From contig JBMYYH010000001.1 of assembly GCA_049609225.1 (NCBI GenBank), forward strand, positions 84,373-148,372: a stretch of DNA of 64,000 nucleotides. The letters run 5' to 3'. This stretch comes from Planctomycetota bacterium (GTDB taxonomy: Bacteria > Planctomycetota > UBA1135). Under the pieces are notes generated by a model. That model saw only the letters and a program-made list of their open reading frames with translations. It ran no database searches and had not been told where the DNA came from. Numbering within the stretch: position 1 is the stretch's first letter; every line of letters starts with the position of its first letter. A program made the position numbers and the translations under genes. This document shows, one piece after another, positions 714 to 11,282 of the stretch.

Positions 714-1862
714 ATGAGACTCCAGAAGCATCCTGACCTCCTAGCTCATTCCGAGCACCGCCATGCCACTTGGTTGGAGCTGTTCTTTGACCTCGTTTTC
801 GTTGCTGCTATCAGCGTGGTGACCCACAACCTCCTGGCTGTCCACGACGGGCATCTCGAACATGGACATGCCTGGCTATTTCCCCAGGAACTCATCCCCA
901 TCTGGTGGGTGTGGGCTTCCCAAACCCTCTTCGCCAATCGTTTCGACACCGACGGCCACCATCACCGCCTGGCCAATCTCATAATTATGCTGTTGGTGGC
1001 GACCATAGCCACCCTTCTTGGGGGCGCCTGGGCTCAAGAGACGGGAATGTTCCTGGCCTTCTACATCTCGGTGCGGATGATTTTGGCTTGGCTTTATCGA
1101 CAAGCCTCAGAGCATCAGGCCGTGTGTAAACCATTCGCACGTAAGATGAGTTTGGCAGTTGTCCTGGGCACCGCGATTTCCGCTACAGCGTTATTTCCTT
1201 CCTCACCGTGGCGTGAAATTTTATTCCTCTCAGGAATCGCATTTGAGATGATTTGTGTTGCACTTTGGAGTAAGGATAAAGATGCGCCAGAGGTCGACCG
1301 AGAACACCTCATCGAGCGCACCGGTTTGTTGTCCATTATTTTGCTCGGCGAGTCGGTCCTTAACTTGGTTTCGGCCCTGCGCAATTACAATTGGACGCCG
1401 TGGAGCCTGTCCGCTGGCCTTTCCGGGTTCATTATGCTGGGCAGCATTTGGTGGATTTATTTCGACAGCTTCAACCGACTCGGACAGGCCAAGCGACTGC
1501 GCAATGGCCTGGTGGTGCTGTATTCGCACGCGTTGTTCATCATGGGACTCGGCATTCTTGCCAGCCTGATCGCTCACGCTGTGCGCAGCGACATCGTCAT
1601 GACCGACTATCGCGTACTCGCAATCGGTGGCATGACTTTGCTATATCTGGGGAAGCAGATTCAGTACTACGTAGCCTTCCCGCCCTATCGCCGGAATATC
1701 CTCATCAACACGTCAGTCTGCATCGGCATCACTGCGGGCTCTGCGTTTTTACCTCGCCCTGAAATGGCCCTGATGGGCGCAACATGTGGACTCCTGTTCT
1801 GCGTTTTCAGCAGTGTCCGCTGGACCCTGAGCAAAGACGTTTCGGCGTACTTGAAGGGTTAG
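714..1862 (+). CDS. LtrA (low temperature requirement A) family integral membrane protein
   Basis: 382 aa and polytopic. The N-terminal [16 protein letters not shown] matches the LtrA-family signature as I recall it. Confidence 0.75.
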
Positions 1863-1872
1863 ACTCGTAAGC

Positions 1873-3189
1873 ATGCCGTTGCTCCTGGCACTTGCCCTGA
1901 CCCTAGCCCCGCAAGACCCTTCCGCGGAATCCGTGAATGTGGCTTCGGAGGCTTCCGATCCCTTTGGCGCCGTTGCGATGCCGGAGTTGGACCGCAGTGA
2001 ATACCGTGCTTGGCGTAGGTACTTGCGTCCGACGGATGAGGAAGCAGCCTTTGAAGCGATTCCGTGGCTCCCCACCTTTGCGGATGGCTTGAAGGCCGCC
2101 GAAGAAGCGCAGTTGCCGCTCCTGCTGTGGGTGATGAACGGGCATCCGCTCGGCTGTACGTGAAACAATGGTGTCGCGGGCCGTGTGTCCGTGTTCTCTG
2201 ATCCACGGATTGCAGAGTTGTCGAAGGCATTCCTGCCTGCGGCGGATGAGGTTTGGCGTTTGCAGCGCGGCGGCGATGCCGAATGTCAGTTCTTCCAGCG
2301 CGCGGTCAACGGTGGCAAGTTGATCACCGACAATGGCACGCGCCAAGGCATCTACGTGATGGCGCCTTCGGGTGAGGTGCTGGCGCGCGTGAACAGCCTG
2401 AAGGCCGATCGCGTCTTGCAGATGATGCAGGAAGGACTGGCCGCATGGGAAGCACTACCGGAGGAACGCCGCCATCTGGCGTCGGATACACGACTGGAGG
2501 GTGAGGAGCGCTGGGAAGATTCCCGCCCGACGGAAGGTTTGTTGTTGTCGCGCATCGTGCGTGACCTACCCGTCGAAGGCACGGTGGACGGCACCCGCGC
2601 CACGCGTTGGAATCGCGATACATTGTGGTTCTCCAAGGAGGAGGTGGAACAGTTGGTCAAGGATGCACGGGACCGACCGGCCGATTGGGTGCCCCTCCCC
2701 CGCGCCTTCGCCCGACGGCTGGCCTGCTTCACCTTCGTCGACAATGTCTACGGCCAGTGCATTCCCTTCGACATGGAGGATGTCACGCAGATGCAATTGG
2801 AAGTGCGTTGGGAGTCCGAAGACGACGACAACCTGCACCTTCGGTTCCGCGGACGTACGGCGGCTGCGGAAGATGGCGAGTGGCGTCTGGGCGAGAACTT
2901 GTGGAAGCCGAAGAACATGCATGCGCATGCCTTGGAAACCACCATGCTCGGCAGTGGCACTTTCGACCTACACAGCCGCAGCTTCGTTGCCTTCGAGATG
3001 CTCGCACTCGGACGTCGCAGCGGCTTCACAGAGTTGAACAGCCGACGTTTCCGCCCCGAGCCAGGCGGCATCGGCTTTTTGATTCAACTGGATCGTCGCG
3101 CCTGGTCCGCCGCACCGACCTTCATCGCGCTTTATGAAGCGGATTGGGTCAAGCCGCCGACCAAAGGGCGGGAACTGACCAAAGACTAA
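1873..3189 (+). CDS. Secreted protein with a thioredoxin-fold-like N-terminal region. It is read as one gene through the in-frame TGA 2161-2163 (candidate Sec, context GCT-U-NNG).
   Basis: ORFs 1873-2163 and 2185-3189 are in the same frame, separated only by TGA plus 7 sense codons. The junction reads LPLLLWVMNGHPLGCT[TGA]NNGVAGRVSVFSDP. The N-terminus MPLLLALALTLAP is signal-like. The gene starts 10 nt after ltrA. Confidence 0.5.
2175..2193 (+). promoter_or_regulatory. SECIS-like hairpin starting 11 nt 3' of TGA 2161-2163
   Basis: CGCGGGC-CGUGU-GUCCGUG: a 7-bp stem (two G-U pairs) with a 5-nt loop containing GU. Confidence 0.4.
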
Positions 3190-3195
3190 GGCGCA

Positions 3196-4830
3196 TCAGG
3201 CCTTGCCCTTAGCGGCTTCGCGGATGCCAAGCCGCACGCTGAGGTGATGCAGATTGCTGCGATGCATGCCGAGTTCGCGTGCTGCCGCGGCCCATACTCC
3301 GTCGTGGCGAAGCAGTGCCTCACGAATGAGCATGCGCTGATAGTCCTCGACGGCTTCGCGCAATGGCCGTGGCTCATTTTTGGCCTCCTCAGAGGTTGGA
3401 GTCTCCATCTTGACCGGTGGGACCTCCACCGACGCACTCTCCTTCTCCGACACATTCGCTGGCACGAAGTCGCCACCTAGGTCGGCGCGTTGCACCAGGA
3501 TGAGGTTGCCGCGCAATACGCGGCCACTCGCTCGGAGGACCGCTCTGGAAAGGGTGTTCTCCAGTTCACGCACGTTTCCAGGCCAAGCGAACTCACGTAG
3601 GGCTTCGAGGGCGTCGGGGTGGAGGCGAATTGGGCCTAGACCTAACTGACGTCGGGTCTGATCGCAGAAATGACCGGACAGGACCGCGATGTCTTCGCGT
3701 CGGGCGCGGAGAGGCGGGACCACCAAACGGCAGACGTCGAGGCGGTGCAGCAGGTCCGAGCGGAAATGGCCGGCCTCAACCTCCTTTTCCAAGACGCGAT
3801 TGGTGGCTGCAAAAACTCGTACTGAAACACGATGCGTCTTGTCCGAACCCACGCGCTGGATCTCTCCTGATTGCAGCGCACGAAGCAGCTTGGGTTGCAC
3901 CGACATCGGCAACTCTCCAATCTCATCAAGGAAAAGGCATCCACCATCGGCAACTTGGAATTTGCCCAAGCGCTTGTGCGTCGCACCGGTGAAGCTGCCG
4001 GATTCATGGCCGAAGAGTTCGCTCTCCACCACGGATTCCGGCAAGGCTGCACAGTTCACATAGATCAGTGGCTTGGCCGAACGGGTCGACTCCTGATGCA
4101 GGCGCTGGACCACGAGTTCCTTACCGGCGCCGGTCTCGCCGGTGATGAGTACTGGAAAATCAGAGCCCGCGAACAGGGCAATCTCTTCCAGCAGGTTCGA
4201 CATCGCCTCACTCTGCCCCACCATACGCACGGTTGGCTTGGGCCCCTCAGCCAACAGGGCGTCGGCAATGAGGTCTTGCTTCTGGGCCGCGCGCTCGAGG
4301 GCGTCGTCCAGATCGGCGGTGCGCAGTGCCGCGGTGGCGAAGGCTGCGAGCAGATCGAGCAGGATGATGGGCACCTTGTCGAAGGTCCCCGGTGCGATGG
4401 CATCCAACGCAAGGACTCCGATCAAGCGATCTCCGATCCGAAGGGGCACTCCCATGCAGGCATGGACGTGACTTGTGAAACCTTTGTGCCCATCAAGCAG
4501 ACCATCAAAGGGGTCGGCCAACGGCGAGTCTGCAGGGAATCGCACCGCCTCTTCGGCTTTGCAGATGACGGAAAACCGCGGGTTATCCGAGATGTGGAAA
4601 GCGTGACCATGGGCCTCGTCAGCCAGTCCCAGGGAAGCCACTGGGATGAGGGCTTCGTCTTGGGTCCGTAGCAGGGTGACGGCATCCGCCTTCAACAAGC
4701 GCTGCACGCCGACCACGAAGCGTTGGTAACGCTGCTCGGGGTCCAGGGTCAAAACGAGGTCTTGGGCAAGATCCCGCAGCCCTGGAAGCAGCGAAAGCGT
4801 TGTCGTTTGCACATCAGTTGTCGTTTTCAC
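3196..4830 (-). CDS. norR: Sigma-54-dependent NO-responsive transcriptional activator (NorR type: GAF domain, AAA+ domain, Fis-type HTH)
   Basis: GTG start. Walker A is VLITGETGAGKE, with ESELFGHESGSFTGA and a C-terminal HTH AAARELGMHRSNLHHL. It is divergent from the nor operon. Confidence 0.85.
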   Translation of the reverse strand: MKTTTDVQTTTLSLLPGLRDLAQDLVLTLDPEQRYQRFVVGVQRLLKADAVTLLRTQDEALIPVASLGLADEAHGHAFHISDNPRFSVICKAEEAVRFPADSPLADPFDGLLDGHKGFTSHVHACMGVPLRIGDRLIGVLALDAIAPGTFDKVPIILLDLLAAFATAALRTADLDDALERAAQKQDLIADALLAEGPKPTVRMVGQSEAMSNLLEEIALFAGSDFPVLITGETGAGKELVVQRLHQESTRSAKPLIYVNCAALPESVVESELFGHESGSFTGATHKRLGKFQVADGGCLFLDEIGELPMSVQPKLLRALQSGEIQRVGSDKTHRVSVRVFAATNRVLEKEVEAGHFRSDLLHRLDVCRLVVPPLRARREDIAVLSGHFCDQTRRQLGLGPIRLHPDALEALREFAWPGNVRELENTLSRAVLRASGRVLRGNLILVQRADLGGDFVPANVSEKESASVEVPPVKMETPTSEEAKNEPRPLREAVEDYQRMLIREALLRHDGVWAAAARELGMHRSNLHHLSVRLGIREAAKGKA

Positions 4831-4861
4831 AGCGGGTATTGTAGTCGAAAAAACAACCTCA

Positions 4862-4917
4862 AAATCTCGAATTTCGGGAGATTACTCTATTTTCGGAGTT
4901 AGAGATATTAATATCTC
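4862..4917. promoter_or_regulatory. Cluster of three dyad symmetries, a candidate enhancer (UAS) for NorR
   Basis: AATCTC-N9-GAGATT (4863-4883), CTCTA-N10-TAGAG (4885-4904), and the perfect 16-nt palindrome GAGATATTAATATCTC (4902-4917), which abuts the -24 element. Confidence 0.4.
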
Positions 4918-4932
4918 GGCACGCTTTTTGCT
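4917..4932 (+). promoter_or_regulatory. Sigma-54 (-24/-12) promoter of the nor-nir operon
   Basis: CGGCACG-CTTT-TTGCT versus consensus TGGCACG-N4-TTGCW. It lies 56 nt upstream of the norC ATG and next to a sigma-54 activator gene. Confidence 0.65.
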
Positions 4933-4987
4933 CCCTCCCCGGTGAGCCAAGAGCTCAACCTCCCAACCCAAGACCTGAGAACACCTC

Positions 4988-5719
4988 ATGCTCACCAAAT
5001 CAGCCGCCAAAGCGTTCTTCCTGGGCGGCACAGCCTTGTGCAGCATCGCCTTCGTGCTCCTCTCCATGGACACGCTGGCACAGATGCCGGATCGCTCGAA
5101 CCAGGACCAGATGTCGGATTCCGTCGTACGCGGACACCATATCTGGAACAAGAACAACTGTATGGGCTGCCACACCATCATGGGTGAAGGCGCCTACTAC
5201 GCACCGGAATTGACCCTTGTCATGGAACGACGCTCCAAAGCTTGGATCGCCGAATTCCTGAAGGACCCGGAGCGCATGTACCCAGGTCGCCGCAAGATGA
5301 CCAAGTACGACTTCTTCGATCCTGCCATCGTCGGTGAGGAAGAAGCTGCCAAGAACGTCGACGACATCGTCGCCTTCTTTACATGGGTCGGCAAGATCGA
5401 CCTCAACGGCTTCCCGGCTGAGCCGGATATGGCTACTTCGCCTCGGCTCGTGACTCCTGATGTCACCGAGTCGGACGCCCTGTCCGCTGCCCCTACATAC
5501 TTTTCCACGGTTTGCACGAGCTGTCACGCCGTCAATGGCGCCGGCGGCAACGTCGGTCCGGACCTGGCTGGTGTTGCCGACCGCTATGAGCCAGATTACC
5601 TACGCAAGTGGGTTTCCGACCCGAACTCGGTGAAGCCTGGCACCGCCATGCCAAACCTTGGCCTTCAAGGCGAAGAGCTCGAGCAAATCCTTTCCTACCT
5701 AGGAACCCTCAAGGAGTAG
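4988..5719 (+). CDS. norC: Nitric oxide reductase subunit C with an extra C-terminal class I cytochrome c domain (diheme)
   Basis: N-terminal TM helix, NorC-like CMGCHTIMGEGAYYAPELT, and a second heme site CTSCHAVNGAGGNVGPDL...PGTAMP. Confidence 0.85.
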   Translation: MLTKSAAKAFFLGGTALCSIAFVLLSMDTLAQMPDRSNQDQMSDSVVRGHHIWNKNNCMGCHTIMGEGAYYAPELTLVMERRSKAWIAEFLKDPERMYPGRRKMTKYDFFDPAIVGEEEAAKNVDDIVAFFTWVGKIDLNGFPAEPDMATSPRLVTPDVTESDALSAAPTYFSTVCTSCHAVNGAGGNVGPDLAGVADRYEPDYLRKWVSDPNSVKPGTAMPNLGLQGEELEQILSYLGTLKE

Positions 5720-5723
5720 GACC

Positions 5724-7073
5724 ATGTACGCAAAATCAACCAAGCTCGCGTGGACCTTCTTCGCCACGTGCATGGGCCTGTTCGCCCTGCAACTCCTCTA
5801 TGGATTCATCCTCGGCTTCGACCGCATGGGCTTCGATGTGCTCCATGATTGGATCCCCTTCAACACAGCACGCGCGACGCACACCAACCTGCTCGTCGTG
5901 TGGCTCTTGGCCGGCTTCATGGGTTCGGCCTACTACATCATCCCGCAGGAATCCGGTCGTGAGATCTGGAGCCCAAAGCTCGCCTGGATCCAATGGCTTT
6001 CCTTGGTCTTGGTCGGTGTCGTCGCCCTTATCGGCTACCACCTGAACTACTGGGAAGGACGCAAGTTCCTCGAGATCCCGCGCCCACTCGACTACCTTGT
6101 GGTTGTCAACGTGTTGGCTTTCTTGTTCAACCTCCTGATGACCATCTGGACGGGAAAAAACAAGAGCACGACAGCTATGGTGCTGTTCTTTGGCTTGCTC
6201 ATGGCCGCGTTGCTGTACCTGCCAGGCATGTACACCTTCGACAACATTGTGCATGATTCCTACTTCCGCTGGTGGGTGGTCCACCTCTGGGTAGAAGGCG
6301 TTTGGGAACTGATCATGGGTGCGATCCTTTCGTTCCTGTTGATCAAACTGACGGGTGTGGACCGCGAAGTGATCGAGAAGTGGCTGTACATCATCGTCGG
6401 CTTCACCTTCCTCTCCGGCATTCTCGGTACCGGGCACCACTACTACTTCACTGGCGCTCCCGGCTACTGGCTCATGGTTGGTGGAATTTTCTCGGCCCTC
6501 GAGCCGCTGGCCTTCCTCGGCATGGCCATGTACGCCATCGTCATGGCGCGCAGGGGCGGACGTAATCATCCAAACAAACTCGCTCTGACGTGGACCATTG
6601 GTTGCGCCATCATGAGTTTCGTCGGTGCTGGATTCCTTGGCTTTGCGCATACCCTTCCGGCGGTCAACATGTGGACGCACGGAACGCTGGTAACGGCAAT
6701 GCACGGTCACATGGCTTTCTGGGGCGCTTACGCGATGCTCATCCTGGCAATGATCACCTACGCCTTGCCGGAAATGACTGGGCGCAACCTCTTTAAGGGT
6801 TGGATCCCGGAATGGGCATTCTGGCTCAGCAACATTGGCATGATTTCGATGACGGGCGCCTTCGCCGTCATGGGTGTCGCCCAGGTGTACATGGAGCGTA
6901 AGTCCGGCATGGACTTCCTCGATGTGCAGGAGAGCTTGGAAATCCACGCTTTCGGCTTAGTCCTTGCTGCGGCGTTGTTCTCCATCGGCATTGGATTGTT
7001 CATCAAGAACTTCATCAGCTACGGCCTCCCGAACGACGAGGTCTTGGCAGCCCAAGAGGGCATAGAGGGTTAG
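5724..7073 (+). CDS. norB: Nitric oxide reductase subunit B (cNOR, heme-copper oxidase superfamily)
   Basis: 449 aa with 12 TM helices. Contains WWVVHLWVEGVWEL (the FeB His/Glu motif) and GTGHHYYFTG. Confidence 0.9.
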   Translation: MYAKSTKLAWTFFATCMGLFALQLLYGFILGFDRMGFDVLHDWIPFNTARATHTNLLVVWLLAGFMGSAYYIIPQESGREIWSPKLAWIQWLSLVLVGVVALIGYHLNYWEGRKFLEIPRPLDYLVVVNVLAFLFNLLMTIWTGKNKSTTAMVLFFGLLMAALLYLPGMYTFDNIVHDSYFRWWVVHLWVEGVWELIMGAILSFLLIKLTGVDREVIEKWLYIIVGFTFLSGILGTGHHYYFTGAPGYWLMVGGIFSALEPLAFLGMAMYAIVMARRGGRNHPNKLALTWTIGCAIMSFVGAGFLGFAHTLPAVNMWTHGTLVTAMHGHMAFWGAYAMLILAMITYALPEMTGRNLFKGWIPEWAFWLSNIGMISMTGAFAVMGVAQVYMERKSGMDFLDVQESLEIHAFGLVLAAALFSIGIGLFIKNFISYGLPNDEVLAAQEGIEG

Positions 7074-7076
7074 GAA

Positions 7077-7892
7077 ATGTCTGGGACCAACGTCATGTCT
7101 GAAAGTCAACAAGAGAAGGGGTTGGTCCCTTTCTACCAACCCATCGCGCAGGAGACCGATCTGTTCCTGCACTGCTGGCAGCAGAAACTGCCACTCATGC
7201 TCAAGGGGCCGACTGGCTGTGGTAAATCTCGATTCGTCGAACACATGGCAGAGCAGCTAGGCCGGCCTCTTGTTTCCGTCGCCTGTCACGACGACACCAG
7301 CGCTTCCGATCTACTCGGTCGTTGGTTGGTGCGCGGCGGCGACACCGTATGGCAAGATGGCCCTGCAACGCGCGCCGTGCGTGAGGGAGCCATCCTCTAC
7401 CTCGACGAAGTGGCGGAAGCCCGGCCCGATGTGGTCGTGGCCATCCACCCCCTTACTGACCACCGCCGTCGTCTGTTCTTGGAGCGCCACGATGAAGTGC
7501 TCGAAGCCATCGACGACTTCATGTTGGTGGTCTCCTTCAACCCCGGTTATCAGAAGGGTTGGAAGGAACTGAAGCCTTCGACGCGGCAACGTTTCGTCGC
7601 GCATAGCTTCGACTATCCCACGCCCGAACTCGAGACCCGCATTCTCTGCGGCGAGACCGGATGTGAAGTCGACCTCGCCAAACGCCTGGTGAAACTCGCC
7701 GGCAAGTTGCGCGGCCTGGAAGAGCTCGGCTTGGCAGAGAAAGCATCCACGCGCTTGTTGGTAGACGCAGTCCGCCTCATCCAAGCAGGCATGGCACCTC
7801 GTGTCGCTTGCATCGCTGCGATCTGCGAACCGCTGTCGGACGAAGCCGACATCCTCGAAGCCCTACGCGAAGTCGTCACGCTCGCCTTCTAG
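7077..7892 (+). CDS. norQ: NorQ/CbbQ-type MoxR AAA+ ATPase
   Basis: Walker A LMLKGPTGCGKS and Walker B AILYLDEV. About 270 aa, located between norB and norD. Confidence 0.85.
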   Translation: MSGTNVMSESQQEKGLVPFYQPIAQETDLFLHCWQQKLPLMLKGPTGCGKSRFVEHMAEQLGRPLVSVACHDDTSASDLLGRWLVRGGDTVWQDGPATRAVREGAILYLDEVAEARPDVVVAIHPLTDHRRRLFLERHDEVLEAIDDFMLVVSFNPGYQKGWKELKPSTRQRFVAHSFDYPTPELETRILCGETGCEVDLAKRLVKLAGKLRGLEELGLAEKASTRLLVDAVRLIQAGMAPRVACIAAICEPLSDEADILEALREVVTLAF

Positions 7893-7896
7893 TCTC

Positions 7897-9807
7897 ATGG
7901 TCCGACGCCAAGCACCACCGGAACTCCACCTCGACTTTGCCGAGGAGTTCTTTGGTGCCTTGTGGAAGCGATTCCGCAAGCGTCCGGTATGTCGCTATGA
8001 AGAGCAGGGTGCTCATTTCGAATCGATGGCGGCCTCCTTGGGCGCCGTCGCACAAGCCTTTGCCGGACGCCACGTGGTCGTGCGTCGGGCGGAAGGATCC
8101 GGAGGAGTGCACTCACATGTGGTGTTGTTGCCACGCCTCATCGCCTTGTCCTCAGAGGTCGCAGTGAACCGGCGCTTCCTGTTCACGCGTGCGGCTTTGG
8201 CAGGCGCCATGATCGCGTCGCAACTGGAGCAGACCGCAGAAAGTGCTGCACCCTCCATTCATCCGGAGCTCGCGTTCCTGCAACACGCGGTCGACACCGC
8301 ATGTAGTTTGAGCAAGGAGCATCCCGGATTCGCGGAACGTCTGCAGGAAGGCGCACGCTTGGAGCTGCAACAACGCCCAGGCGTGGATACCTACCGCGGC
8401 CATGGCGAGATCCTTGAACTGGCCCGACGCTCCGCCTTGATTGCCGTGCTGCAGGGGCAGTCTTGGGAGCCGGATCCATCTTGGTCCGTCGCCCTCACGC
8501 GCAAGGCCAAGAAGAGCCTGCCCTCTCCGGCGGTCCTGCTGTTCGGCAGTTCCCTGCCGCGTTCTGAAATGGATGTCGCTGAGCAGGCGATGTCGGAGGA
8601 AGAGAAGGCTGCGGGTATCGCAGCGGATGCCTCGGAAGTCGAGGCGCCGGTGAAGGATCATGTCAAACGCATCCTTCTGGAGGACGACGATCCCTACAAG
8701 GAGGCGATGCCGGATCATGCCTTCGAGAAGATCTCCTTCGCGGAGAAATACGAGGGTGGAAGACGTCGGATGGATGGCGAGGATGACATGGATGAGCAAC
8801 AGCAGTCGCTCGATTCCGTGGACCTGCGCGAACTGATCCGTGGTGGACCGGAAGTCCACAGTATCTACAAGGCGGACATCGGGGATACCGAAGGTATTCC
8901 AGACGTCGCATCGGTGGATCCGAAGGAGAAGGGAATCACCTACGACGAGTGGGATGAAAAGGCGCGCTGCTATCGCAGGGATTGGGTCACGGTCTATCCG
9001 ACCACCTTGCCGCCGTCGGAGGATGCTGCTTCGGAAGAGCAACGCCAACGCCTGGCCTCCACCGTGCGCACCTGCATGCGCCGTCTCGAACGCAAACGCA
9101 CCGAGCGACGTTCGCTCGACCGCCAACTCGATGGCAATGAGTTCGACCTCGCCGCCGTGGTCGAGGATCACGCGGCCTTGCGTTCCGGACAAACCCCAAG
9201 TGGTCGCATCTATCGCCACAACCCGCGCATCGATCGCGACCTCGCCACGACCGTTCTGTTGGACCTGAGTCTCTCCGCGGATTCCTGGGTCGGCGGACGT
9301 CGGGTACTCGACGTCGAACGCGATGCAGCCTTCGTTCTCGGGGAAGTCGCCGAAAAGATCGGCGATTCCCTGCAGATCATGGCCTATGCCTCGAACACCC
9401 GCAATCTCTGTCGCATGTGGGACGTCAAGTCCTGGCACGAACCATGGCGCCTCGGCGCCGCGCGCCTGCAACAGCTGAAACCTCAAGGCTACACGCGCAT
9501 TGGCCCGGCGATTCGCCATGCCACCGCGAGCCTCGAGGCCCATGATGCACGTCATAAGCACCTCATCCTCATCACTGACGCCAAACCTACAGATTTCGAT
9601 CGCTATGAAGGCAACTACGGAGTCCATGACGTCCGCCAAGCCGTGCGTGAAGCGGCTTCGCAGGACATTGGCGTTCACGCCCTCGGCATTGACCCGAAAT
9701 GCGCTGGCATCCTGCCGGTGATGTTCGGGGTTCGAGGCTGGAAGCTCCTACCCCATCTTGCGGAACTTCCTGAAGCACTCGTCAATGCCTATGGCGACCT
9801 CTGTTGA
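7897..9807 (+). CDS. norD: NorD, a von Willebrand factor A domain protein
   Basis: I chose the ATG 4 nt after the norQ stop; the track's earlier start at 7801 overlaps norQ. The C-terminal VWA domain has the MIDAS motif LLDLSLSADS and ends in ILITDAKP. Confidence 0.8.
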   Translation: MVRRQAPPELHLDFAEEFFGALWKRFRKRPVCRYEEQGAHFESMAASLGAVAQAFAGRHVVVRRAEGSGGVHSHVVLLPRLIALSSEVAVNRRFLFTRAALAGAMIASQLEQTAESAAPSIHPELAFLQHAVDTACSLSKEHPGFAERLQEGARLELQQRPGVDTYRGHGEILELARRSALIAVLQGQSWEPDPSWSVALTRKAKKSLPSPAVLLFGSSLPRSEMDVAEQAMSEEEKAAGIAADASEVEAPVKDHVKRILLEDDDPYKEAMPDHAFEKISFAEKYEGGRRRMDGEDDMDEQQQSLDSVDLRELIRGGPEVHSIYKADIGDTEGIPDVASVDPKEKGITYDEWDEKARCYRRDWVTVYPTTLPPSEDAASEEQRQRLASTVRTCMRRLERKRTERRSLDRQLDGNEFDLAAVVEDHAALRSGQTPSGRIYRHNPRIDRDLATTVLLDLSLSADSWVGGRRVLDVERDAAFVLGEVAEKIGDSLQIMAYASNTRNLCRMWDVKSWHEPWRLGAARLQQLKPQGYTRIGPAIRHATASLEAHDARHKHLILITDAKPTDFDRYEGNYGVHDVRQAVREAASQDIGVHALGIDPKCAGILPVMFGVRGWKLLPHLAELPEALVNAYGDLC

Positions 9808-9827
9808 ACCACTAACGAAAAAACAAC

Positions 9828-11282
9828 ATGTTCCTGTCCACTCTCATCCCGCTGGCAATGGCCAGTACCCTGCTGCAGGCCGAACAAGGCAGCGGAACGG
9901 GTCTTCTCGACCTCCGTGAAACGCCCGTTTCGTCGGAGTTCGGTGCAGTCATCGGCGAAGAAAACGCCGTGCTCACCGCACCACCGCATGTCCCGGCTCC
10001 GATTACCCGTAATCACCCGACCAAGCTCATCGTGAACTTGGAAGTGAAGGAGTTCGTCGCTGAAATCGCAGACGGTGTCGACTACACCTTCTGGACCTAC
10101 GGCGGCACCGTGCCTGGTAGCTTCATTCGCACACGCGTCGGCGATGTCGTTGAATTCAATCTGAACAACGATCCGTCGAGCAAGATGCCGCACAACATCG
10201 ACCTGCACGCTGTCACCGGTCCTGGTGGTGGTGCTGCCTCGAGTTTCACCACTCCTGGTCACACTTCCCAGTTCTCCTTCCAGGTCACCAACCCTGGCCT
10301 GTATGTCTATCACTGCGCCACCGCGCCAGTCGGTATGCACATCGCCAACGGCATGTACGGCCTGATCCTGGTCGAGCCCGCAAAGGGCCTCGGTACTGTC
10401 GATAAGGAGTACTACCTGATGCAAGGCGACTTCTACACCGAAGGCGCTTACGGCGAGCCAGGCCTGCAGCCCTTCAGCATGAAGAAGGCTCTGCAAGAGA
10501 TTCCTGATTACGTGCTGTTCAATGGTTCGGTCGGCGCCCTCGTTGGCGACAAGGCCATCACCGCGGAAGTCGGCGAGACCGTTCGCCTTTACGTCGGTAA
10601 CGGTGGACCAAACCTGGTCAGCTCCTTCCACGTCATCGGCGAGATCTTCGATACCCTCTACCCGGAAGGTGGCTCGGTGGTGAACAAGAACGTGCAGACG
10701 ACCTTGATCCCGGCTGGTGGTTCCGCCATCGTCGAGTTTGAGGTGGAAGTGCCTGGCACCTTCATCATCGTCGACCACAGCATCTTCCGTACCTTCAACA
10801 AGGGTGCTCTCGGCATGCTGAAAGTGACTGGTCCTGAGGACAAGTTGGTCTACTCCGGCAAGCAAGACGACCGCATCTACCAAGGTGAGGGCGGAGCCAT
10901 CCAAGAGATCCCGGCTTCCGATGCTCCTAAGGTCCCATCCACGCGCACCAAGGAAGAGCGTATGGCCTTGGGCAAGCGTCTTTACGACACCAACTGCCTC
11001 GCATGCCACCAGGCTAACGGCGAAGGTATTGCTGCCGCATTCCCACCACTGGCCAAGTCCGATTACCTGATGGACGACAAGAAGCGTTCGATCAAGGTCA
11101 TGCTCGAAGGACTCAGCGGTGAAATCACCGTCAATGGCGTGAAGTACAACGGTGTGATGCCGAAGGTCGTCATGACCGACGACGAGATCGCCAACGTCCT
11201 GACCTACATCCGCAACTCGTGGGGCAACAGCGGCGACGCCGTCACCCTCAACGAGATCGGCGAAGTCAAGAGCGGTCACTAG
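9828..11282 (+). CDS. nirK: Copper-containing nitrite reductase NirK with a fused C-terminal cytochrome c domain
   Basis: [15 protein letters not shown] and [19 protein letters not shown] (Cu ligands), plus C-terminal [11 protein letters not shown]...NGVMP. Confidence 0.9.

Follow-up and report, generated by a model that had tools for sequence, protein, structure and literature searches.

A predicted selenoprotein family of Planctomycetota with a thioredoxin fold, commonly annotated as pairs of hypothetical proteins

The stretch of DNA analysed here (the window) comprises 64,000 nucleotides of a Planctomycetota metagenome-assembled genome (MAG; GenBank assembly GCA_049609225.1, contig JBMYYH010000001.1, positions 84,373 to 148,372). 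Near its left end GenBank lists two adjacent hypothetical proteins, ACPG31_00395 (96 amino acids, aa) and ACPG31_00400 (334 aa), which are database entries P0197 and P0001. The first open reading frame (ORF), of 96 codons, runs from ATG 1873 to TGA 2161-2163; seven sense codons (NNGVAGR, 2164-2184) follow, and GTG 2185 then opens an ORF of 334 codons that ends with TAA 3187-3189. Both ORFs share the same frame, and the TGA is the sole interruption of 438 codons. The junction reads ...LPLLLWVMNGHPLGC95-T96-[TGA]97-NNGVAGRVSVFSDPRIAEL.... The initial annotation had joined the two ORFs into one gene, in which the TGA would encode selenocysteine (Sec, U) next to a Cys and would be followed by a hairpin resembling a selenocysteine insertion sequence (SECIS). 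All coordinates of the ORFs, TGA, Cys and hairpin proved correct on rechecking the sequence. The features of the locus are collected in Table 1.

Table 1. Features of the candidate selenoprotein locus and of its surroundings (positions within the window)
Feature	Position	Strand	Remarks
Predicted selenoprotein gene	1873-3189	+	438 codons, single frame; two hypothetical proteins in GenBank
Probable signal peptide, MPLLLALALTLAPQ...	1873-1932	+	Read by eye; homologue N-termini similar
N-terminal thioredoxin-fold domain, about residues 42-197	1996-2463	+	AlphaFold2 model of P0049; Foldseek; boundaries via alignments A1 and A4
Cys95 codon TGT, probable Sec partner in C-T-U redox centre	2155-2157	+	Cys at position -2 in 69/81 loci
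In-frame TGA, predicted selenocysteine codon U97	2161-2163	+	TGA in 81/81 relatives; Cys in 8 uninterrupted homologues
SECIS-like hairpin	2175-2193	+	7-bp stem 2175-2181/2187-2193; apical loop CGUGU 2182-2186
C-terminal all-β domain, about residues 223-425	2539-3147	+	Confidently modelled β-strands
AhpC/Prx peroxiredoxin gene, in-frame TGA at peroxidatic-Cys codon	3-557	-	3' end cut by window edge
NorR-like sigma-54 activator	3196-4830	-	
Dihaem cytochrome c	4988-5719		
NorB-like haem-copper oxidase subunit	5724-7073		
NorQ	7077-7892		
NorD-like VWA protein	7801-9807		
Copper nitrite reductase fused to cytochrome c (NirK)	9828-11282		

In this window of 59% GC, 185 TGA codons have at least 40 open codons on each side when all six frames are counted. 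Since the TGA split and the hairpin, taken alone, are within chance, it is the comparison with relatives that carries the case. The comparison covered 81 loci, of which L001 comes from a genome (JAJFFC01, isolate OFTM128) and L002-L081 from metagenomes; they stem from many unrelated samples and are 35-64% identical at the protein level. Matches obtained with tblastn in related loci cross the TGA, extending from about residue 1-60 to about residue 430. In all 81 loci scored, the homologous codon is TGA, never TAA or TAG, and it is embedded in a highly conserved flank, W-x-M-N-G-H-P-L-G-C-T-[TGA]-[N/G]-N-G. Codon-position entropy peaks at the third (wobble) position both in the 20 codons upstream of the TGA (0.64/0.51/1.25) and in the 15 codons downstream of it (0.75/0.70/1.15), which argues for coding selection in this frame on both sides. 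The nearest in-frame start codon after the TGA is found anywhere from 4 to 71 codons away, so that no restart site is conserved. Homologues that appear as pairs of genes all break at this same TGA, and conservation runs across the break. The identical two-ORF split is present in an independent Logan assembly (L084, run SRR27204695), which excludes an artefact of assembly.

The residue two positions before the presumed Sec is less constant. It is Cys in 69 of the 81 loci, Gln in nine and Ser, Glu or Thr in one each. The C-x-U motif read from the window alone thus stands for the window protein, with its C-T-U spacing, and fails as a trait of every member. As the Cys at -2 is not universal, the predicted Sec itself, not the C-x-U pair, is the invariant element.

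How the family is represented in protein databases was seen from searches of 5.8 billion proteins with the fused protein, U being replaced by C. Nearly all of the 49 relatives found are 310-345 aa long and cover only the last three-quarters of the query; these truncated proteins begin just past the TGA position with M/V-AGRxSVxS. The 96-aa N-terminal part used as a query retrieved 57 separate proteins of about 60-130 aa, none of them with a Pfam domain or a functional name; N-terminal parts of about 90-110 aa thus stand in the databases as hypothetical proteins of their own. Two matches of the fused query are uninterrupted, P0049 (...FIWAMDGHPLGCTCNNG...) and P0045 (...FLWNFHGHPLGCSCING...), and both carry Cys exactly at the TGA position. 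A profile of two full-length Cys forms was then searched exhaustively with HMMER against 1.84 billion cluster representatives, which gave 2,398 matches at E <= 1e-3, 939 at E <= 1e-10 and 268 at E <= 1e-30. For 133 of the best 150 representatives the start lies past the Sec position; the other 17 include sequence of the N-terminal domain. With P0045 and P0049, the uninterrupted proteins number 19, and eight of them (P0045, P0049, P0051, P0082, P0108, P0151, P0156 and P0176) have Cys at the site, in the form of C-T-C, C-S-C or C-N-C motifs. Single-ORF homologues with Cys in place of the TGA, proposed from the outset as a check of the Sec assignment, therefore exist. Judged from these sequences, the family has many members, most of them from planctomycetes, and annotation pipelines routinely cut its genes in two.

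The hairpin, CGCGGGC/CGUGU/GUCCGUG, begins 11 nt after the TGA and its apical loop begins 18 nt after it. If the U of UGA is taken as column 1, the helix pairs positions 15-21 with 27-33 and leaves a loop at 22-26 (C-G23-U24-G-U). In the consensus of bacterial SECIS (bSECIS) elements, an apical loop of 3-9 nt, with G as its first or second nucleotide, tops an upper stem of 4-16 bp; the loop lies 16-37 nt past the UGA, and the minimum free energy is -7.5 kcal/mol or lower (PMC13188914, Fig. 2). The window hairpin falls within this description in every respect (5-nt loop with G second, 7 bp, 18 nt, -8.7 kcal/mol).

Over all 63 unique sequences, 83.9% of the cells of helix 15-21/27-33 are paired, and the covariation score is reached by none of 500 shuffles. 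In the 38 best-fitting sequences 95.5% of cells are paired (40-48% in slid controls), a value inflated because this class was chosen by best fit, so that the full-set figure is the unbiased one; four of the seven pairs change on both sides in this class, and again none of 500 shuffles reaches the score. Compensatory changes include GC to CG or AU at 15:33, GC to AU or CG at 18:30 and CG to UA at 21:27. The hairpin, originally noticed in one sequence, is evidently conserved and covarying among the relatives that carry the TGA.

Another gene of the window bears on the use of Sec in this genome. The peroxiredoxin (Prx) gene at the window edge starts at 557-555 on the minus strand, and its in-frame TGA (413-411) falls exactly on the codon of the peroxidatic Cys. 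With U replaced by C, the product matches the Pfam family AhpC-TSA at 7.8e-40. In the independent assembly L084 the same gene is split into calls of 48 and 147 aa. Sec-containing Prx (TxxU) is an experimentally verified selenoprotein family (PMC13188914), and complete Sec machinery has been described in several planctomycetes (PMC4807772). Given this TGA in a Prx of the window, Sec is probably decoded in this genome. A tRNA scan and an Rfam search gave no match in the 64-kb window.

Sequence searches do not assign the fused 438-aa protein (U replaced by C) to any family: at E <= 1 it has no match among the families of Pfam or of NCBIfam (release 20.0), and searches of PDB sequences returned no match. 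The early impression that the C-terminal part belongs to no recognised family is borne out by these results. Structure prediction was more informative. An AlphaFold2 model of the Cys homologue P0049, based on a 29-sequence alignment, reached a mean predicted local distance difference test (pLDDT) of 81 and a predicted template modelling score (pTM) of 0.80; the modelled protein is about 27% identical to the window protein, and its N-terminal region is covered by two of the 29 aligned sequences. In the model, the N-terminal half shows a β-α-β-α-β-β-α topology, and C63-T-C65 is placed in the loop between β1 (residues 51-56) and the next helix. Foldseek matched this half to 3f9u_B (E 4e-5, TM score 0.59 on the target) and to 7tkv, a Thioredox_DsbH domain (E 3e-4). 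In the same region two homologues have sub-threshold Pfam matches to Thioredoxin_7 and Thioredox_DsbH (16.6 and 14.9 bits against a cut-off of 27). Model and Foldseek agree with the placement of the TGA at the redox motif of a thioredoxin fold that had been proposed from the sequence. A stop at 2161-2163 would cut this fold between β1 and α1, which favours read-through. For the C-terminal all-β domain, in which WNRDxxWF, LVDNVRGQ and NGR are among the strongly conserved motifs, Foldseek found no PDB structure better than E 0.04.

In some homologues the module is part of larger proteins. A Sec-free version of the whole module (thioredoxin fold plus β-domain) forms the C-terminal domain of Ser/Thr protein kinases in P0060, P0156, P0158 and P0186, where CTC, CVA, CSS or TGD is found instead of CTU. 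In P0156 and P0158 the module is preceded by a hydrophobic stretch, presumably a transmembrane segment. Other fusion partners, seen in P0020, P0067 and P0176, are an M28 peptidase, a PQQ-type β-propeller and a SecDF P1-head-like domain; each of them is of extracytoplasmic type. Judging from the kinase fusions, the module may serve as a sensor or ligand-binding domain outside the cytoplasm.

The N-termini of homologues look by eye like signal peptides or lipoboxes (P0045, MQTNLLSICLLLTATTVTAQE; L013, ...LMLAGCSS; L022, ...LVSGGCAAG). Because such N-termini occur family-wide and fusion partners are of extracytoplasmic type, the protein is very probably exported.

Our interpretation has direct support from the single conserved frame with its conserved TGA, from the Cys that uninterrupted homologues have at this position, from the covariation of the hairpin and from the fold, and we hold with high confidence that 1873-3189 is a single Sec-encoding gene. 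In this interpretation, SelB with Sec-tRNA(Sec) would bind the hairpin at 2175-2193 and UGA 2161-2163 would be recoded as selenocysteine. The signal peptide would be removed, leaving a mature protein that is periplasmic or lipid-anchored. The redox centre Cys95-Thr96-Sec97 would lie in the loop after β1, like the CxxC site of thioredoxin-like proteins. Our confidence in the specific chemistry is much lower. Sec97 may be the attacking or redox-active residue and may form a selenenylsulfide with Cys95 in most members; in those without Cys95 (about 15%, with Gln, Ser, Glu or Thr), Sec would be recycled by an external reductant. The C-terminal all-β domain probably binds a substrate or a partner.

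Several observations weigh against a selenocysteine gene at this locus or narrow what can be said of it, among them the selection behind the highest pairing value and the distance and thin N-terminal coverage of the modelled homologue, both given above. The folding energy of the hairpin has z = -2.6 as a 19-mer and is not significant over longer segments (z = -1.0 over 40 nt and 0.0 over 71 nt). Moreover, the minimum-energy structure of 2155-2225 does not contain the proposed hairpin. As the 71-nt fold has z = 0.0 and omits the hairpin, energy alone cannot settle its existence. Also, about 25 relatives, mostly of a soil clade (...AARRSVW...), fit helix 15-21/27-33 poorly.

The sequences of the soil clade can instead form GCCAGACG-GUC-CGUCUGGY, located 4 nt further downstream (-12.5 kcal/mol). 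This helix, 19-26/30-37, has 87.0% of cells paired with weak covariation in 25 sequences, mostly of the soil clade, and 65.5% paired with no covariation above shuffles in all 63 unique sequences. RNAalifold run over all 63 sequences yielded almost no consensus structure, and the family appears to use two helix registers. In our reading, the SECIS element is real and its register may have drifted in one clade. The clade with the shifted helix is a subset of L044-L080 (alignment A3), mostly from soil and rhizosphere samples, and Gln often replaces the partner Cys in it. Four of the soil-clade loci (L057, L059, L061 and L062) have a group of tRNA-Gln(TTG), tRNA-Gln(CTG) and tRNA-Glu(CTC) genes about 1.1-2.6 kb downstream of the TGA, none of which is tRNA-Sec.

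The remaining points of this kind concern the residue at the site, the Sec machinery and the neighbourhood. In 11 of the 19 uninterrupted homologues the site is occupied by Arg, Ala, Asp, Ser, Gly or Asn, so that the fold is possible with no redox residue at all. Among the sequences compared, predicted Sec forms make up the majority and genuine Cys orthologues are few; in some lineages the redox residue has been lost completely. E. coli SelA, SelB and SelD gave no tblastn match in the window and the 81 loci, a result that is uninformative for a genome of several megabases, and ARAGORN found no tRNA-Sec in 40 related loci. Clustering of neighbourhoods across loci revealed no conserved gene neighbours beyond close relatives and hence no hint of function.

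Could the TGA be read through without Sec, by a near-cognate Trp or Cys tRNA, by a suppressor or as a sense codon? This would account for the lack of Sec machinery in the sequence at hand, i.e. the 64-kb window and the 81 loci, and is nevertheless very unlikely. TGA is the commonest true stop in the window: of the 26 open frames with 400 or more codons, 12 terminate in it, among them those of the NorR-like and NorD-like genes, which Pfam confirms. The codon is therefore not reassigned genome-wide. The site aligns with Cys within a redox motif and is followed by a covarying hairpin of bSECIS geometry. The only other TGA of this sort in the window marks the catalytic Cys of a peroxiredoxin, a member of a verified Sec family.

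It is even more improbable that the locus holds two real genes, one for a 96-aa secreted peptide ending at the TGA and one for a 334-aa protein whose start would be GTG 2185, the two possibly coupled in translation. Gene callers do divide the locus in just this way, as they do in dozens of relatives, GenBank follows them, and a GTG is at hand eight codons past the TGA. However, the restart codon wanders between 4 and 71 codons downstream, and few codons of the family are as conserved as those that separate the TGA from the called starts (NNGVAGRRSVWSDP). A stop that is always TGA, the existence of uninterrupted Cys homologues and a break inside one thioredoxin fold, between β1 and α1, are equally hard to reconcile with two genes.

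A pseudogene or a sequencing or assembly error, i.e. a nonsense mutation in a once-intact Cys gene, would take just one TGC/TGT-to-TGA change, and MAG assemblies do contain errors, but this explanation is effectively refuted by the TGA of 81/81 loci from unrelated samples, whose divergence (35-64% protein identity) excludes copies of one contaminated sequence, by the same split in other reads (L084) and by purifying selection on both sides of the TGA.

The product of the predicted Sec-encoding gene can be compared with known systems. A catalogue of 2026 holds 119 prokaryotic selenoprotein families, defined by Pfam, NCBIfam or TIGRFAM models (PMC13188914, Table 1). As no Pfam or NCBIfam model matches the fused protein, the family lies outside these 119. 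On the sequence evidence, it is a new, large and systematically mis-annotated family of predicted selenoproteins, of an established kind and with no new mechanism.

The closest parallels are bacterial thioredoxin-fold selenoproteins whose SECIS lies in the coding region, for example Sec Trx, DsbA-like, Prx-like, 'Trx7/PDZ domain' (CxxU) and 'thioredoxin-like selenoprotein Sec.1' (CxU) proteins (PMC13188914). With these the window protein shares the UGA at the redox motif after β1, the Cys homologues, a stem-loop just 3' of the UGA with an early loop G and the annotation as two ORFs. Unlike them, it matches none of their Pfam or NCBIfam models, has C-x-U in place of UxxC or CxxU and contains an extra conserved all-β domain of about 220 residues without structural neighbour. 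C-x-U centres occur in the catalogued families rhodanese form 3, UshA-like, ferredoxin-thioredoxin reductase and Trx-like Sec.1 on PF13192 (PMC13188914). No relationship was detectable between the window protein and the catalogued C-x-U families or Sep15. In most selenoprotein families Cys forms are the more numerous, whereas here Sec forms far outnumber them; in GOS_A, by comparison, 2 members are Sec forms and 155 are Cys forms. The families GOS_A to GOS_C and deep-Sep were rejected as the identity of the window protein, as they have NCBIfam models or many Cys homologues.

In structure, the N-terminal domain is best matched by Thioredoxin_7 and Thioredox_DsbH (DUF255) proteins (PDB 3f9u and 7tkv), which are extracytoplasmic and have the same layout of β1, redox motif and α1. 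These use CxxC, whereas C-T-U is found here; the Pfam scores reach 14.9-16.6 bits against the required 27, and identity to the structures is 12-16%. Eukaryotic Sep15/SELENOF combines a thioredoxin-like fold with C-x-U, resides in a secretory compartment, binds partners through a second domain and has its SECIS in the 3' untranslated region. The window protein resembles it in having C-x-U on a thioredoxin-like fold, an extracytoplasmic or secretory setting and a second domain, and differs in that its element is located in the coding region, its accessory domain is another one and no Pfam match exists at E <= 1.

The minimal SECIS of E. coli fdhF has its helix 11 nt after the UGA, G23 and U24 in the apical loop GGUC and a bulged U17. 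By this numbering, the window hairpin shares the 11-nt spacing and the loop G23-U24. In contrast to fdhF, its stem is a perfect 7 bp without bulged U, its loop is CGUGU, not GGUC, and the helix of some relatives lies 4 nt downstream. An unnamed "hypothetical" selenoprotein candidate of planctomycete P1 may belong to the same family.

The predicted selenoprotein, its many relatives and the neighbouring Prx are deposited as pairs of "hypothetical proteins", and recognition of the family would correct these records. Selenoprotein catalogues, NCBIfam and BSepDB among them, would also gain a model. The family may have been overlooked because standard searches start from annotated Cys homologues (Sec/Cys pairs), which are rare here. 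It would add a predicted exported selenoenzyme to the Planctomycetota and extend the short list of thioredoxin-fold C-x-U centres, and the kinase fusions offer a handle on what the module binds or senses. One may go further and imagine an almost obligately selenium-dependent family, with hundreds of clusters at 50% identity, that performs a new extracytoplasmic chemistry. A lone Sec would be catalytic or sensing, given that about 15% of members do without the partner Cys, the β-domain would bind a small molecule or lipid, the Cys and redox-dead copies would serve kinases as outer sensors, and the family would be a main reason why many Planctomycetota keep the Sec machinery. We consider this broader picture rather unlikely.

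The genes around the candidate gene complete the description of the locus. It is adjoined by a denitrification/NO-detoxification cluster (3196-11282; Table 1). Since the neighbours of the selenoprotein gene are not conserved in other loci, this nor/nir adjacency is probably coincidental. On the other side, a gene for a membrane protein of the LtrA (low temperature requirement A) family (714-1862, plus strand) ends 11 nt before the start codon of the predicted selenoprotein gene, and the same layout is found in L084.

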